From the NCBI GenBank assembly GCA_976551045.1, contig CDPCPM010000033.1, positions 26,040,001-26,104,000 of the forward strand: a stretch of DNA of 64,000 nucleotides, read 5' to 3'. The notes under the pieces were generated by a model. It made no database searches. It saw nothing but the letters and a program-made list of their open reading frames with translations, and had not been told where the DNA came from. This DNA is from Glaucostegus cemiculus (taxonomy: Eukaryota). The translations under genes and the position numbers were made by a program. Positions 1-16,774 of the stretch are shown in pieces. How positions within the stretch are numbered: position 1 is the stretch's first letter; each line of letters starts with the position of its first letter.

Positions 1-176
1 TTGTTTACCTCTGCGGTCACAAGGTGTCCGTCTGCCATACAGCACGGCAGTTCTGATCACTGGATGAAAAAGACTGAAGATGGTGTATTTTTATATGTAG
101 TTATAAAAGTTAATGATAGAGCTGATGATTAGAATATTAGTTTATCTATGCCCTAAGTTAAATGTCCTTCGGGTGG

Positions 177-1465
177 CCATTGGCTAGTCGGATCACATGC
201 CTGGCTCATGTGTGGCTAAAACGATGCAGTAAAAGTTAGTGTTTTGTGTAAAGCTGCGGTCTACTGTACACGTATATCAGCAAATCTCGTAAAACCGACA
301 ATAAAATTCTAATACTACAAATCACTCGGCAAACTGAGGACTTCTAGGTTCCAATTTAGTCTTTTCCGCTTTGCAGGCTGGAGGCGAAAGCAGAATCTAC
401 AGTTGTTGAATCGCCTTCCATTTTGCCATTAAACTTTACATAACCAGCGATCAACACACATTTAAACTTTAACGGGATTCAGAGCGCAAGCCCCGTACAT
501 ATCCTTAGTACTGAAGTAGACGATTTTTAATGTCCACCTTTATGCACAAGTTAACAATGGCATGGTGAGGCTGAACAAAACAAAACAATAAGAGCAAACA
601 GGAAACGATTCTAAGGAGGGGGAGGAAAAACATACTGCTACAATGTTATACAAACAACTAAAACAGCGGTATAAAATTATTAGTAGCGGAGTTCAAAATC
701 TACGCTGATAACGCAATGATGTTAAGATAAATTCATAAACAGTTTTCAGATATATAATCGAGTTTACTTATATATTGCACAGTTAGGCGTTATACTCTTA
801 CAATGTCCTAATCTTGCCAGGTACAGTTGCCAACTTAAACGTCAATTAACCATTTTAAAATGAGAAGAGACATATTTGCAAACTCCGGTTTTGCTGTTAA
901 GGTTTATAGAATATATGTTCTATCATCCAATTTTTAAAAAACTGGCTTCATGCTTTATGTTAAAGCAAACGCATTTTATCGAATTCGTACTATGTCAGAA
1001 AGGTCCCAATTGACCAAGGAGATAAATGATTTCAGAAAATAAATCAATGATTTAAGAAGTAATATCAAGATTTCATTTTCATGATTGCCTTCTCCAGTTG
1101 GTGGAATATTCTTAGCACGATTTATTTCACCAGTTTTTCCAAACTTATTCTCACAATCTAATCAGATTTCCCCACAATCGTATGGACAATTGTGTTTTCC
1201 CAATAGCGTTCGTGATATGAATTTCCTTTCATAAAGAAAGCTTATCTTAAAAATGCACCATCTCTGTAATCAAATTCCAAACCAAATAATGACACAGAGA
1301 GTTATTTTGCCTTCGCTGCATTTTATATTTTGGTGGATCGATTATTTGTCTTCGTTGCATTATAAGCACCGACGGGTTGTACAATGGCACTAGATCTGGA
1401 TCTTAGCGGCGATCTTATTAGATGATGGAAATCTCACTGGAGGGTTTCAACGGAGGAATGAATGA
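177..1465 (+). pseudogene. Putative HoxD7 relic (promoter/leader, eroded exon 1, eroded homeobox)
   Basis: CCATTGG-N10-CACATG at 177-199. The leader at 246-338 (GTGTAAAGCTG...TATATCAGCAAATCTCGTAAAACCGACAATAAAA...CTACAAATCACTCGGCAAACTGAG) resembles the HoxB7/HoxA7 5'UTR as I recall it, with CTG (334) in place of ATG. KAEST at 387-401 resembles Hox7 NAEPT. 1387-1437 reads ALDLDLSGDLIR*WKSH (cf. TLELE....[10 protein letters not shown]...AH), then GGG TTT CAA CGG AGG A ATG at 1442-1460 (cf. WFQNRRM). Confidence 0.65.
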
Positions 1466-2819
1466 TGCAGACAACCAGGAGGCTTTCTGGTTGAATTTAA
1501 TCTGTGAGGGCGGGCCTTAAATTTCATAATTTCATCGACCTTTTAAAAAAAATGATATTCAAAAATTCTCCGACCTTTACAGATACGATTTAAAACAACC
1601 CTTGTGAATCCGTACAAATAGATGCTTTTATTTTTTTTTCTATCCATTAATTGTTTTAAGAAGCAGTCATCTGCAGAAAACTTTCCAGCCCACCCTGCGT
1701 ATAGTCCGACCTCCCCAGCCCACTCCAGAAAAAGAATTTTTGGATTAAGAGTTAATGGAATTTCAAAGGTTTAACATTTTATTTATGTTGCTTTGTATTT
1801 TAATTCCGCGACCCCAGCATTTTTGTGGACATCGTGAGTTACGTTTGAGAAATGGGTGTTTAACCGTTCAGCTTCTAGCGGACTGTTGTGTCATTTTTTT
1901 TCCGTAAAATTAATTGGAAGCCCGAGTCCAGAGACGATCTGCATTCAACATACGTAACCCCGCGGGAAACATGAGGCAAGAGGGAAAGGTGGATACCAAA
2001 TATCTCCCAGGCATCTTCTCCCCTAATGAATTTGTTGTGCAGCATTGTGACAGTGGCTGGCTCGCAATTACGGATCAAATTGATTCAAACATTTTGCACT
2101 TTTCATTAGCGTTAAATACACTTACACAGAACGGAGCTATTTTTATCAATTTAACCTAAGTTGTTGTGAACACAGGGATGTGTTATTTCATTTTATTTTC
2201 TCTCCTACAATGGAAATAGGAGGGGCATAATGAAATATTCCACAGTGATTAGAAATGGAGGCTCGGTATGCACCAAGATAGTCCCACATACTGAAACTCA
2301 ACTTCCTCTTTCTCACCTGTGTAGAATACACCTTGGGACATCTATTGTGAATTGTCACCCTGTTTGCATTATTGGTTTTTTTTGTTTGAATGAAAGTTGT
2401 CGCCATGGTGCAGAGTTTAACTCAGTGGCCAAACGTGTTTCAGAGTCGCTTGTTTCCTATTCTTAACCCGGCCAAATAGAAAGGGCTCAGGAAATCATGT
2501 CCAAGCGAAATCCGGAAGCCTGTCTGATTCATAATCGCCAACATTGGGAAATGTGAATCATACATGCTGCATTATTTGAGCGAGTTATTTATTCACGTGA
2601 CAAAAAATGTTATACTTGGCGCATTGAAAACATGGACTAAAAGGCCCTAGATTATCAAACTGCACGGGTTTGGTTGCTGTGGTGTGAAGTACCCACTGTC
2701 GAAAGAGTTATTCCACTTTATGTTTACGTTGTTGCTGCACTTCCGCCTGCATAGCTGGTTGGAAGGTTCGTTACAATGCATGTTATATAACAAATAGCTG
2801 TAGCAAAGAACTCGTTAAA

Positions 2820-3030
2820 GGAAACATGGCGCTTGCGAGCTGTACTTGCGAAATCCGCAAGGAATTGCAGCGAATTCCTTTTTGTTTGAAGAAAATTTAC
2901 AACTTTGTAATGGACCTTTTACGAGGGACTCCGCGCTCCCATTGGCTAGTTTTGGTCATGTGAATCAAGTAACTGCGTTCATGGCCTTTTCATGATTTCC
3001 CTTGTGAATATTTCACTGCATTCCGCTGCT
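2820..3030 (+). promoter_or_regulatory. Conserved Hox7/8-6 intergenic element (H8/7-6 four-cluster-sequence-like), probable distal promoter
   Basis: YY1-type AACATGGCG (2823-2831), AAAATTTACAAC, TTTTACGA, CCATTGG-N11-CATGTG (2939-2962) and CATGATTTCCC. This resembles the block I recall between paralogue groups 7/8 and 6 in vertebrate clusters. Confidence 0.6.
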
Positions 3031-4035
3031 AACTCGTCTCAAACCGTCTTTTCTGTCAGTATCTCCCCTTGCCTGCTTTTGTCGTTGGTATTTGGCGCCA
3101 GCTGCTTGGGAAAAAAGGAAGACTTTCCGCTCTATTCGCGGTGTTCAATCCTTTTCTGTATAACTATGAGGAAGTCATTCGACTCATGCTGGGATTTAGC
3201 AATCTGATCTCTCTCACAGACCTCTGACGTCTGCTTACAGTCTTTCATTTACCCTTCAATACGCTTTACCTATTTTAAGTTATTTTGATAATCGAAACTG
3301 TACAAATGGAATACAAAATCCATCTGGTTCCTATTCGGGGGCAGCGCCATGAAACCGGTAAGTCTTTTTGCTCTTGCCTGCTCGGCTGTTGCAGATAGCA
3401 GTGTTGTAATGGGAGGCAGCGACGTTGTCTTCGCTGGTTGAGTTCTAGGCAGCTGTTTGGCAGGTCGAGGAATGCTCGACATAAATTAATAAACAGCAAG
3501 ACTGATTTTCAAATGGCGTATTCTAACCAGGTCCAGGTGGTCGATGGAGTACAAACAGTGGCTGTGAAGCAGATTAATTAGATATTTATTTTCCGCAATG
3601 AGACCGAGAGTTGCGATTCTTGCCTACCTTTGAGATGATAGCCTTACTATAAGACAACTGACATTTGTGGAGATTGGTCGGATTGCCTCGTTCAATAGAG
3701 ATTTTTTTTCTGAAAAGATATTTTTGTTACTTTTATTACTGATGGCTCTCTGGTTCTGGTTAATTTGCGGGAGGGTTGCCCGGTGAACTGCTTCAGTGAT
3801 TGGCGGCTTCAGTCTGTTTTTGCTGATCTGTGGTGTTCCATGCTATTTTCTATCTCGCAGCCTAGTGTAGGAAGGCTGGACTCTTTTGCTCTGTCAAATG
3901 AAAAGTTGGAGCAATGAGTGATGGATTTGTGTTAATGATCCTAATAAGTCTGTGCAGCGATCACTGGCTTTAGAAACATCGAGAGCTATGGGATTTTGGG
4001 GGAAATGCTTAGCTAACATTTTAATGATATTTTAC

Positions 4036-5961
4036 CACGTGACAGTAGTTTGCGCAAATGAGCAGCACTCTTAGAATAATTTTCCCGCGGTCAACATCAG
4101 ACATGCTTTCAATATGTTAATGACGAATAGAGGTTCATAGATATTTCTAATATTTTGTCGTTGAGCAAATGATTTTGGTTTGTACATTTGTTTTCTGAAC
4201 ATGATGTATCGAGTTGTGATTGTTGCATATAAAGACAAGAATCTCTCCATTCTGAGAAATGTTTCTGAATTGATGTAAACAGCTGCAACTTCATATCAGT
4301 AACTTCATAATGTAACACAAGGAATAAAGCATCGCAATCGTTTATTCTATTCTCATTTCTCAATATTAATTATTAATTGCAAGAGTCTACTGGGGAAATA
4401 TGTGCAACATAGGATCATGTCTTATTGCAAGCAGAGGAGTACTGTGAATATTTCTATAATTGATTTTTTTTCTTAGCCAATTGTTTGTATTTCCGCTGAT
4501 TAAATATTCGGAAAGAATTGTTCATCACTTTGCATCAGAGATGTAGGAAGAAGTTTCCAGTTGCATGCACTTGAAAGTCAACATTATTCGACTATAAACT
4601 GATTCATCTTTCAGTTTCTAAATTATTTGCAGGAAACGAATAAAAATATATCAGCTTGCCCCATTAACTGTATGATTATATAGATATTAATTCAGCGCTG
4701 ACCACTGGTATCTGTTTGCAAATGACATAATTAAAAACCCATTTTCTATCTGTGTCTGTTAGACAGGCCGGCAGGTATATTGTTGAAATGAAACACTGGC
4801 CAGTAATAATTAGGTCACAACGTTTTGCTGGAACCAAATAAACGTTTAGTGACATTGTTACTATTCTTTTATCACAGCATAAAAACTTAAATATTAATTG
4901 TCTACTTCAGGCGTAACTGCCAAGAAAAATATGATACTTAAATTATTTCAGATCGCGACAGTGTAGTGCATAATATTTTGCTTTATGGAGAAAGCACCTC
5001 GATTTTCAAGCAGTGATTGGCTTTAATCATATTCCGCATTGTGTTTCCATATACTTTTCAATACTTCTGTGTTCGCTACAATTTGTGGAACAGGAAAAAA
5101 TCTTATGCAGCAGTTATTAATTAAGACCTTTTATCTCAGTTTTAAAAGTGAACAAGTTAAATATTTGTTAGATTTTTCTCGTTAAGCTAAATCTGTTTTG
5201 CATTAAGTATACACTGTCGGTTTTTAGATTAGAATGAAAGACTTACTGACATTTCCTCAATTGTTTCTTCCTCATGAGACATAATTTGGTTAAAAAAATT
5301 CTCTGAACAAAAAAAGTAAATCTTCATTATAAATATAATTAGCAAGTGCATATTTCCAAATCACGATTCTACTGACGATATTAAGGTGGGACTATTTAAT
5401 TCACTTTCTTCAAGGCAAGCAACAAAATATTCAATGATTTCTAAGTGGTAAGCATATATATTGAGTTGTGTGTGCTGTTTAGTTAATATCTAGAGTTGTA
5501 TTTGGAAGCTTAAATCTGAAGGATTTTGCGCAGGATGCACTTCTATAGTCGACCGACAACGCTCATATGTAATTATCAATCAATTTCGGTACAGCATATA
5601 AAATTTCCTTTTTAATGAAAACATTTTAGTTCATCTGTGACAAAAGGTGATCTGACTCTCCACAACGTGGAATACCTTTTAATTCATAATGTTCTTTTTT
5701 ATTTTTAATAGATATTTGTAAACGTAAAGAACTCCTCATACGAATCCTGCATAATGAATATAGTGTATAATAGGAATTAATTCATTGCGATCCCAGAAAA
5801 TTGCTCACTCTTTACAGGACTGACAAACGAATTTCCAGATCGCGATCTTCTCCCGAATTTATTACAAGGGCCAACGCGCTGCAAAAGGAAAAATCAACAG
5901 AAAAAAATATAATTAGTATGTGGTGCGCGAACTGGTTTCTTTATTCCACAGTATGAACGGG
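4036..5961 (+). pseudogene. Possible HoxD6 relic (start region and eroded homeobox)
   Basis: GCGCAAATGAG start context with MSSTLRIIFPRS at 4058 (cf. Hox6 MSSYFVNPTFPGS). 5817-5849 reads GLTNEFPDRDL (cf. [12 protein letters not shown]), 5870-5881 ANAL, and 5897-5935 TEKNIISMWCANW (cf. [12 protein letters not shown]). Heavily degraded and aligned by eye only. Confidence 0.4.
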
Positions 5962-8394
5962 GCTTCCAGTCACGTCTAGTGGAAGGTTAATTGCAAGCTA
6001 TTTTGGGTCAGAAGTTTCAAGGACATAGATCAGTAGTCTGGATTTCTTTTTAATTTAGCCTTACTCAGAACTGGAAACCAAACACTCAACTATTCTTCAA
6101 GAACAGCTGATTAGTACAGAGCAAAGATTGTCAGGCGGCTGCTGCAATGTTAGATTTACGAGTATTCGAGTGCTAGACCGTTGGATTGTAGCAACTATGA
6201 TCTTAGCCCAGAATTATAAGAGAAAAACACATTTCAAAATTCCCCGACGATAAATGAAACCGACCCCTATATTATGACATTTTATCTAAAATATACATTA
6301 GAATGTTACTTTTTTCTTCTTCCGTTTAAACGTAATTCATCTCAAGTTATAAATTGCTCATCTCTTTATTGTCATATTTAGGTTTAGAACACCTTCAATC
6401 CAGGCCCCATGCGGGACTACTGGGAAACCTTAATCCTGAAAACATTCCAATAACTCGGAGATCTGTGCAATTTCAGACAACAATGGACGGTGGGCCCAGC
6501 TCCCGACTGCGTACTATTTCTTGCATCCAGGCATGGATTATTTCGCAATATTTTAGCTCCATTCTCTCAAGTACCTGCTGACAAGTATCAGGCAGAGGAG
6601 CACAAAGAGTCCGATTTGCCCACACTACAAGATAATCCTGTAAACACTGTAAATATATTTCTTCCACGTCCTATAAATCAAACTCTGTTCCAAACTAAAA
6701 ATCACACTCCCGAGCGCGCGTGTGTGTTGGGGGTGCAGTGGCCAGATACACTGGTGATCATATTTCATTAATTCACTTACTCAAGTAGTTCGGGGAACAC
6801 CCTATTTAACCCCCAAATAAGCGCCCAGCAACAGATAACTGAAACCCACGTGCGTCAAGTATTACTGGAACAATGGGCGGATCTTTGCCAAATTTTTCAG
6901 ACTCAGATTAATGCAGTCAGTGTTTTGACATCGTTTCATTGCCTTCATTAGTTGTGCCGTTCCGGATCACAACCAAACATTAATAATTCCCCTATTAATC
7001 AAAGAGGAAAAGGCAAACGGTGTTTTTTTTATAATATTACATTTATTGCTGTCGCAGTTTTCCTGTATTTGTGGCCAACTGGAATTGATTCGATGTGTCT
7101 CTAACAGAGTGCTGCACCGCGAAACTATCCGTCCGAAGAAAGACAACGGGCCGAAAGTGCGGTCCTGCTAATCTGCAACATTCGTTTTCGATACTTTACC
7201 ATATCGGTTCTGGAACTGCCTCACTACGCACATTGATCAGATCTTGCAACAGATCTGATAGAAATATTCTGACCCACTGTAGCTTAAACTGCAGGGAAAG
7301 CCACCGTGCAGTTGAATTGCACAAAGGAAAAAAGTGCAGAGCGCACTTCGCCTTGGGTTTTCGGTTAATGCTTCTGTCGTGACTGGCCTCGATTTAACCA
7401 GACACAAAATAAAATAATATATGAAATAATATAGATTCTTAATCCTTTTTATTTCTTTAACCAATGTCCAATGAAAATAGAAAGCAAATGCTCATCTAGA
7501 ATCCTGACTTTAGTGCTCAAAAGGCAGTAAAAGATGAATCACGTGCTTGTTACAAACTATCTGCAAACTTTGTGAACTCTGTAAAGGTATATGATTTAAA
7601 CAATCTGAGGTAAACAATCTAAGATCAATACTCTACGAACATAACATTGCAGCATTTGTAAGCTTTAGTGATATGTGCCATGTGTATAAATGTGAATCGT
7701 ACATTAAGGGTTTTACCTAACAGAATAATTTCCCCGGCGTCTTTTAACACCAGTAACAGAATCTACAAACTCCAACCCGTTGGAGTAAAGATTGCAATAA
7801 GAATTGCGAAGTAATAATAATTATTGGAAATATTTAGGATTTTTTCCTATCAAGCTCTTCGTCGTGAATAATTATTTACTTACATTAAGCACCAAATTTA
7901 GGGGTCGAGTATATAGTTAATACAAAGTAAGTGCATTCTGATTCAACATAGTTATTCTAGTTCAAACGACGTGACTTGTGTAATAAAACGTGTTGAATTA
8001 TTTGGAAGCAATTTCATGTATTAAAATTACCGTATGAAATTTTGAGTCTCAGGGTAATCGTATAATAATACATCACAGCTTACGATAACTGAAATTTTAA
8101 ACCAACGCATATACTCAGTTTGTATTTATATAATCGCTTTGCGTGTGCGCACCTATAGATGCCTCCAATATATAATTGATAATTTCAGATAACAAAAAGA
8201 CTTCATAGTTAACGATTATCCCAAATGGCGAACCATTTTAAAAACTGAAACCATTGCGGAAAAAATACAAACCCCTTTACGCATCAAAGTCTCTTTCAAT
8301 TTTGCTTTATCGATATGAGCCTGACTTTCTCCGTGTTTGTCAGAAGGAGGCGCTATAGGACAAGGGTCGGTAAATCACAGCAAGCATTCTCACT

Positions 8395-8598
8395 GCATGA
8401 ATTACCCCCAGGGTCAGGCACAAGAATTTACGACTGGTCAACAAAAGCACGTGATCTAAACTTGTGTCCCATATTTGGTTGCATACGTAGGAGGCAGAGA
8501 AATGACATGTGCCTTTTATTTCCATATTTCATTATATATCGCGCGTTCTGGTGGCGAATAAACGTCTAAGAACCACAAATCAATCCCCTAAAAGGCAG
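8395..8598 (+). promoter_or_regulatory. Hox5-type proximal promoter / 5'UTR conserved block
   Basis: ATTTACGACTGGTCAACAAAAGCACGTGAT...CCCATATTTGG...TACGTAGGAGG...CCACAAATCAA matches the HoxA5/B5 promoter block as I recall it and lies directly before the HoxD5 ATG. Confidence 0.8.
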
Positions 8599-9106
8599 AT
8601 GAGTTCCTACTTTTTAAACTCTTTCTCAGGTCGCTATCAAAATGGCCACGATTATCAGTTGCAGAGTTATGGGAATGCCTCGTCTGTGGGCGAGCATTTT
8701 AGGGAGTCGACGATGCTTTCCGCCAGGTATGGCTATGATTACACTGGGATAGACCTCAGCATGACTCGTTCTAACTCAAATCTTCGTGGAGACAGTGAAA
8801 GGTCTACTAACTACATGCAGTCAGCCAGTAACACCTTTCATAGTTCCTCTGGTGCGAGAACTAAGTCTCCTGATCCTGCGTTCTGCTCAGGGTCTTTAAT
8901 AAGCCCATCAGACAGTACTATTAAAACGGACACTACAATCACGGGGCCAAGTCATTCATACCGCGGTGGTCAGGACACATCACCGGTAACCGATGAGCAT
9001 CTTAAGGGAACGAACAGCCCCAAACCAGAAAGTGGGCAACTAGACAAGGATTCAGCACAGCAGATGCAGATATACCCATGGATGAAAAAGCTTCACCTTA
9101 ATCAAG
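8599..9106 (+). CDS. HoxD5: Homeobox protein Hox-D5, exon 1
   Basis: [21 protein letters not shown] Hox5 N-terminus, [12 protein letters not shown] motif and IYPWMKKLH hexapeptide. Donor G|GTACGC at 9107. D assignment comes from cluster context. Confidence 0.92.
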
Positions 9107-9457
9107 GTACGCTCAATGCCGCCATCCTGCCTTTTGATATACATTTTAATTTTGGTCGAAGTAATTTTTAGACTGAGAAACAAAGTAACTTAATAAAATT
9201 ACTAAAGCATAATATTTGTAAAAGTACAACAGTTTGAAGAAAATAGAAATATAAACTGTTGCTTTGAACAGTTATACCAATTGTGTCAGGAATTACAGCA
9301 ATTTATGCATTAGCGATTTCCGTTAAAATTTAAATCATTTAAATACTCCAACTACATATCGGAAAACTTATTTTGTTCTGCACTTATTTGTCTGAAACGG
9401 TATAATTTAATATTTTGCACTAATGCGTGTAATAATTCATCTTTAACTTTTTATTAA

Positions 9458-9700
<243 letters not shown>

Positions 9701-16691: not shown

Positions 16692-16774
16692 CGTCGTCTA
16701 TATATACCCTGTAGAACCGAATTTGTGTGATGTTTCGGTCACAGATTCGTTTCTAGGGGAGTATATGGTCGATG
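16692..16774 (+). ncRNA. mir-10b: mir-10b precursor hairpin
   Basis: Mature TACCCTGTAGAACCGAATTTGTG at 16705-16727 and star arm ACAGATTCGTTTCTAGGGGAGT at 16741-16762. Canonical position upstream of Hox4. Confidence 0.97.

Follow-up and report, generated by a model that had tools for sequence, protein, structure and literature searches.

A probable orphan Hox7-type promoter and leader between HoxD8 and HoxD5 in Glaucostegus cemiculus

The group-7 slot of the HoxD cluster of Glaucostegus cemiculus holds a paralogue of the promoter and 5′ leader of HoxA7 and HoxB7. From sequence comparison, we put at roughly 70% the probability that this element is the promoter of a lost group-7 gene, kept by selection as a working promoter, with no recognisable remnant of its coding part. 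The former presence of a group-7 gene at this site is supported by the sequence similarity, and the coding part may have been deleted or have eroded in place, both of which fit. The original prediction had described a HoxD7 fossil in the form of an eroded exon 1 and homeobox. A group-7 relic is indeed found, but recognisable remnants of either coding part are not, and the significant part of the locus, the promoter and leader, lies directly upstream of the described interval and was missed there.

The promoter paralogue and its setting

The window, by which we mean the whole stretch of 64,000 nucleotides analysed, belongs to an elasmobranch HoxD cluster. Its six-frame translation contains five intact Hox genes on the plus strand (HoxD5, HoxD4, HoxD3, HoxD2, and HoxD1), and the HoxD8 stop codon lies approximately 850 bases before the window start. 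Exon 1 of this HoxD8 is 99% identical to the representative, named Pristis pectinata HoxD8, of a sequence cluster of 30 members; sharks, skates, and rays are among the 15 members listed. A miR-10 precursor was found at its expected location upstream of HoxD4 (16698–16769; 72 bits). Reference loci were taken from this genome itself: the central parts of HoxA (C62), HoxB (C197), and HoxC (C993), with its own HoxA7 and HoxB7 serving as Hox7 references.

The relic (Table 1) lies about 1.0 kb past the HoxD8 stop, between HoxD8 and HoxD5, in the slot and orientation of group 7. In sensitive blastn searches it aligned with the HoxA7 promoter and leader at 65.9% identity over 176 columns (E = 4.9e-13), and its 242–344 portion aligned with HoxB7 at 69.2% over 104 columns (E = 5.4e-8). 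Its profile score was 44–65 bits, while the best of 334 background tiles reached 3.4. Significant similarity between clusters is thus found at the same relative place, as in paralogous conserved non-coding elements. That the ancestral HoxD cluster carried group 7, as originally predicted, is supported by this paralogy and not by the codons cited for it.

The order and spacing CCAAT-N10-E-box-N7-E-box are identical in the relic, HoxA7, and HoxB7, as expected of a Hox7-type promoter. The pattern ATTGG-N10-CANNTG-N7-CANNTG has a single occurrence in each of the window, HoxA, and HoxB; the 20 kb preceding the window and 70 kb of HoxC do not contain it. A scan of the 2.85 Gb genome for the core motif, allowing at most one mismatch, returned three matches, namely HoxA7, HoxB7, and the relic site; the reversed-motif control returned none in the same 2.85 Gb, and a scan of metagenome contigs likewise returned none. 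The core box may carry a Cdx/posterior-Hox-type site. In human, the HOXB7 promoter is bound by USF2 and NFYA (PMC5223348), and a reference title on this promoter (Meccia 2003) is cited in PMC3976385. By analogy with human HOXB7, NF-Y and USF would be the candidate factors for the CCAAT box and E-boxes of the relic (PMC5223348).

Table 1. Coordinates of the features discussed, as positions in the window.
Feature	Positions	Strand	Evidence
Paralogue of HoxA7/HoxB7 promoter and 5′ leader (candidate orphan Hox7 promoter)	176–344	+	blastn, profile
ATTGG (CCAAT box, minus strand) 179–183; E-box 194–199; E-box 207–212	179–212	+	pattern search
Core conserved box: TATA-like ATATCA plus CTCGTAAAACCGAC	274–299	+	genome motif scan
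AATAAA, candidate polyadenylation signal, HoxD leader copy only	300–305	+	sequence
AGG aligned with Hox7 start codon (dead start)	337–339	+	HoxA7 alignment
Expected exon-1 place, without recognisable Hox7 coding remnant	345–730	+	anchored profile test
Homeobox look-alike of the original prediction, no better than chance	1387–1461	+	several tests
Second paralogous non-coding element, Hox7–Hox6 type	2822–3039	+	blastn E 9e-21 (HoxA), 5e-23 (HoxB)
HoxD5, next intact gene downstream of relic site	8599–9700	+	context

The blastn alignment with HoxA7 passes the start codon gap-free and sets the Hox7 ATG against AGG; the CTG at 334–336, originally taken for the dead start, is present but is not the aligned position. 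Similarity to Hox7 ends sharply at 344, eight bases inside the former reading frame. With its slot, its orientation, and a disabled start within a homologous leader, the site resembles a Hox unitary pseudogene (psi-HoxD7). The HoxA7 and HoxB7 leaders differ from the relic at the columns aligned to its AATAAA, which could terminate HoxD8 read-through or shorten an orphan transcript.

When the interval between HoxD8 and the HoxD5 promoter was compared with HoxA and HoxB by blastn, there were two significant non-coding matches, the relic and a second element that brackets the group-7 site on its 3′ side and whose counterparts in HoxA and HoxB lie between Hox7 and Hox6. The order of Hox7 promoter, second element, and Hox5 is common to the three clusters. 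In HoxA the second element lies approximately 2.5 kb past the HoxA7 stop, a position that matches the D2 distal promoter described for mouse Hoxa5 (PMC2868907); judged by position, the HoxD copy is likely the paralogue of D2. Start codon and second element are 4093 bases apart in HoxA and 4100 bases apart in HoxB; in HoxD they are separated by 2536 bases, so that 1.56 kb is missing there. From start to stop, HoxA7 spans 1.58 kb and HoxB7 2.33 kb. The HoxA and HoxB distances are nearly the same although the introns differ by about 740 bases, which could reflect chance or a constraint on spacing.

Searches for exon 1 and the homeobox

An exon-1 remnant above chance and specific to group 7 was not found. 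A combined HoxA7/HoxB7 profile anchored at 345 gave p values of 0.054–0.77 against background and 0.064–0.81 against shuffles across 24 settings, and the single-gene profiles gave 0.12 (HoxA7) and 0.18 (HoxB7). In two of nine tests with exon-1 profiles at this anchor the values were lower (HoxA6, p = 0.008; HoxD5, 0.04); since these two genes score better than HoxA7 and HoxB7, any exon-1 signal is not group-7 specific. The columns at which HoxA7 and HoxB7 agree are retained at 87 of 118 positions in the promoter and at 34 of 104 in the 150 bases after the start, where the null mean is 37 and the observed number is equalled or exceeded in 74 of 100 random tiles. The reading of KAEST (387–401) and TTT GCC (422–427, FA) as traces of Hox7 exon 1 is accurate as to the letters. 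The start, KAEST, and FA nevertheless fall in three different frames, and the Hox7 proteins of this genome read TEATSCAFA and SEPTSCAFA there.

The proposed homeobox rested on ALDLDLSGDLIR*WK from 1387 and GGG TTT CAA from 1442, both of which are in place. All nine codons at 1405–1431 are within one change of NRYLTRRRR, with seven changes in total, but the match is at chance level: an equally good one occurs at 21 places in 90 kb of non-coding background (0.58 per 2.5 kb), where some homeodomain 9-mer is matched 243 times (6.8 per 2.5 kb). Against the real genes, the identity of these codons is 14/27 (HoxA7) and 12/27 (HoxB7). The homeobox register would require the loss of 12 bases before NRYL, and the WFQ register the loss of 38 (10 bases present, 48 needed). 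Homeobox fragments read by hand in AT-rich DNA should thus be viewed with caution, as several per 2.5 kb are expected by chance.

Comparison of the HoxD8–HoxD5 interval with HoxA and HoxB by blastn revealed no coding remnant in 345–2800, nhmmer (--max) with a profile of 10 homeoboxes gave no match to the same region, and tblastn at word size 2 placed nothing at 1387–1461 among the matches listed. A homeobox profile aged to d = 0.4–1.0 was then used to compare forward scores with 334 background tiles and 200 shuffles. At d = 0.7 the tile 1245–1544 scored −3.1 bits, which was equalled by 11 of the 334 tiles and 12 of the 200 shuffles (p = 0.06); in glocal mode its nominal p was 0.03–0.04 against the 334 tiles. 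The exon-1 tile at 345 scores at least as high against the homeobox, and intergenic tiles from which no gene is missing reached 5.5 bits (HoxA7–HoxA6) and 0.5 bits (HoxB7–HoxB6), against −2.4 at the HoxD site. Over 601–2700, the decayed-homeobox model was equalled or exceeded by 65–70 of 106 overlapping background tiles. Local alignment under 18 settings gave no coding remnant that was significant overall; under one setting the HoxD5 homeobox matched 1271–1570 at a level reached by 0.015 of the 334 tiles and 0.005 of shuffles, the values under that setting being 0.09 for HoxA7 and 0.59 for HoxB7. Together with the HoxA6 exon-1 value and the glocal p of tile 1245–1544, this is a faint coding hint that speaks against our reading. 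A homeobox remnant above chance was therefore not found, and neither exon 1 nor homeobox outscored shuffled or background sequence, an outcome that the original prediction had itself named as speaking against it. The site does not qualify as a HoxD7 pseudogene with coding remnants.

The decayed-profile method has been validated by simulation only, with a detection power of at least 95% at d ≤ 0.7, 75–87% at 0.9, 18–47% at 1.2, and 12–13% at 1.5. Neutral divergence estimated from fourfold sites is about 0.7–1.5 per lineage, which falls where power drops, and the absence of a homeobox is for this reason unproven. As a positive control we looked for the group-8 relic that the horn shark literature is reported to place between HoxA9 and HoxA7; this putative control gave a weak signal of 1.4–1.9 bits. 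In this region, L018:3700–4160 (C62) has a faint group-8-like exon-1 signal (1.4 bits, not significant) and an 18-residue tblastn match to HoxD8 (E = 1.3), and is possibly a HoxA8 relic. Unlike for group 7, neither promoter, exon 1, nor homeobox of a HoxD6 relic rose above background in 3100–8400 (best score −0.6 bits). An Rfam search of 1–2800 returned one chance match only (E = 0.91).

Constraint on the relic and competing explanations

The promoter distances are 0.48 between the relic and HoxA7, 0.51 between the relic and HoxB7, and 0.36 between HoxA7 and HoxB7. At fourfold sites, HoxD genes and their HoxA and HoxB paralogues share an identity of 0.32 (200 sites), corresponding to a K80 distance of 1.93 (95% range 1.33–3.09), an estimate that is near saturation, with 18% of bootstrap replicates infinite, and that draws on gene pairs that are not independent. 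The relic has thus changed more slowly than neutral sites (0.48–0.51 vs. 1.93), as do paralogous non-coding elements, the constraint being judged from paralogues within one genome. Hand-derived branch lengths are approximately 0.32 for the HoxD relic, 0.17 for HoxA7, 0.20 for HoxB7, and 0.22 for the HoxD5 promoter, against about 1 for neutral sequence. The relic's branch exceeds those of all three live promoters (HoxA7, HoxB7, and HoxD5), which suggests some relaxation.

Uniform decay of HoxB7 was simulated with 60 runs per level. The observed promoter score of 50.9 bits was reached in 12% of runs at d = 0.15 and in none at d ≥ 0.3, whereas the observed exon-1 score of 0.4 requires d ≥ 0.5, exon 1 still scoring about 36 bits at d ≤ 0.15. 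Because uniform decay cannot yield this contrast, the promoter and the exon did not decay together, which implies either a promoter under selection combined with an old loss of the coding part, or else a recent loss. We regard it as highly probable that the relic is a retained regulatory element.

A recent loss, in which HoxD7 survived until a single deletion removed it and the promoter is now decaying neutrally, would explain why similarity ends abruptly at 344 and why the 1.56 kb deficit nearly equals the HoxA7 span. The span of HoxB7 is 2.33 kb, however, and the agreement in length may be chance. Several independent losses would also be required. HoxD7 is not known from chimaera, and our full-text literature search found no shark HoxD7. 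The horn shark HoxD gene list, as given in PMC3509897, includes neither group 6 nor group 7, which makes a recent loss very unlikely. Even less credible is the idea that the relic is no ohnologous remnant and was copied later from HoxA7 or HoxB7 by gene conversion or transposition. The relic sits in the exact slot and orientation of group 7, its two distances are nearly equal, and both exceed that between HoxA7 and HoxB7, as expected if the four clusters are related as ((A,B),(C,D)) (PMC5054437).

We consider it unlikely, though less so, that the whole of HoxD7 decayed in place, as originally proposed, with 345–730 and about 1290–1480 being an exon 1 and a homeobox too eroded for proof from one genome. 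The position is correct, in glocal mode the tile 1245–1544 ranks in the top 3–4% of the 334 tiles, HoxA7 can be aligned with 1310–1483 in roughly colinear fashion, and across the range of neutral divergence the power to detect such remains falls from 95–97% to 12–13%. Against this stand the negative log-odds of that tile with its shuffle p of 0.06, the equally high homeobox score at the exon-1 site, the higher scores of intergenic HoxA and HoxB tiles, and the many background tiles that match the whole interval. The interval is also 1.56 kb short, which deletion fits equally well.

The main rival to a distal promoter role accepts the relic as a Hox7 promoter and differs in its present use: it would serve HoxD8 or HoxD5 as an enhancer or chromatin element, or form part of the HoxD8 3′ end, and would not be a start site. 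It predicts the same conservation, and both the distance of about 1.0 kb from the HoxD8 stop and the AATAAA inside the relic are in its favour. Four other AATAAA motifs, however, lie nearer to HoxD8 (141–556 bases before the window start), and a TATA-like box and a leader kept in register up to the old start are better suited to a start site. We consider this rival the less probable of the two roles, but not by any means negligible.

Proposed role and comparison with known systems

In the preferred reading, a group-7 gene would have died early and left its promoter and leader between HoxD8 and HoxD5, deletion or erosion having removed every recognisable trace of the coding part. The CCAAT box and E-boxes may still be bound by factors of the NF-Y and USF type, and a non-coding leader could be transcribed in the 3′ direction, towards HoxD5, miR-10, and HoxD4. 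In analogy to the Hoxa5 D1/D2 and HOXC4-6 promoters, the most likely role of the relic, to which we give even odds, is that of a distal promoter whose non-coding or shared transcripts would cover these three genes. A candidate splice donor (ATG|GTGAGG) at 564/565 could join such transcripts to downstream exons. Distal promoters have been described as producing long Hoxa5 transcripts in mouse HoxA (PMC2868907), and human HOXC4-6 as being served by one shared promoter (PMC1831499). The gained AATAAA is awkward for a transcribed leader and counts against this role. Among 20 listed sequencing runs containing part of 100–3100, none is recorded as RNA.

Group 7 is absent from HoxD and is not known from HoxC in any jawed vertebrate. 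Given the ((A,B),(C,D)) tree reported in PMC5054437, the loss of the group-7 gene may predate the separation of HoxC and HoxD. We advance only tentatively the wider proposal that a Hox gene lost before the jawed-vertebrate split, possibly in the HoxC/HoxD ancestor, left a complete promoter that has been functional in HoxD for more than 400 million years. A HoxC twin of the promoter could date the loss, as having occurred once in the HoxC/HoxD ancestor or twice. None was found in 70 kb of a repeat-filled HoxC contig (best E = 9.7), a result that is uninformative given the state of the contig. This HoxC piece (L028–L034; C993:20001–90000, minus strand) is filled with repeats and carries HoxC8-like and HoxC6-like genes approximately 36 kb apart.

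The presence of group 7 in the ancestral cluster already follows from the genome duplications, and the relic confirms this without overturning anything, as a physical marker of the group-7 slot in HoxD. If the preferred reading is true, the relic would be a clean case of a Hox-cluster promoter that has outlived its gene, and as such relevant to cluster cohesion. Among the papers returned by full-text searches, none concerned a HoxD7 relic, to judge by titles and the openings of abstracts, and the relic may already be listed in tables of Hox footprints or conserved elements, the likeliest sources being Kim 2000, Chiu 2002, Prohaska 2004, Ravi 2009, and Matsunami 2010.

The closest counterparts of the relic are the HoxA7 and HoxB7 promoters themselves, with which it shares 63–65% identity, the CCAAT-N10-E-box-N7-E-box arrangement, the core box, and the leader; it differs from them in having neither start codon nor coding exon and in its gained AATAAA. 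Paralogous conserved non-coding sequences of the Hox clusters, three of them common to all four clusters, were reported by Matsunami 2010, as cited in PMC3595034. As described there, these elements are, like the relic, non-coding, shared between clusters, and of unchanged relative position since the genome duplications; the relic differs in representing the proximal promoter and leader of a gene that its cluster has lost. Reported Hox pseudogenes and remnants include caecilian psi-HoxD12 (PMC4470032), elephant shark Hox14 in HoxA and HoxB (PMC3707753), and bichir HoxA7 (PMC1845163). To judge from these accounts, each is the remnant of a lost gene at its own slot, as is the relic, but the relic is recognisable at its regulatory end only and its loss is likely far older. 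In the role proposed here, the relic would resemble mouse Hoxa5 D1/D2 and the HOXC4-6 promoter, in which an upstream promoter feeds long transcripts of downstream Hox genes, and mouse D1 is described as being itself the promoter of a neighbouring gene (PMC2868907). The likely HoxD paralogue of D2, by contrast, is the second element and not the relic, for which promoter activity is proposed by analogy.
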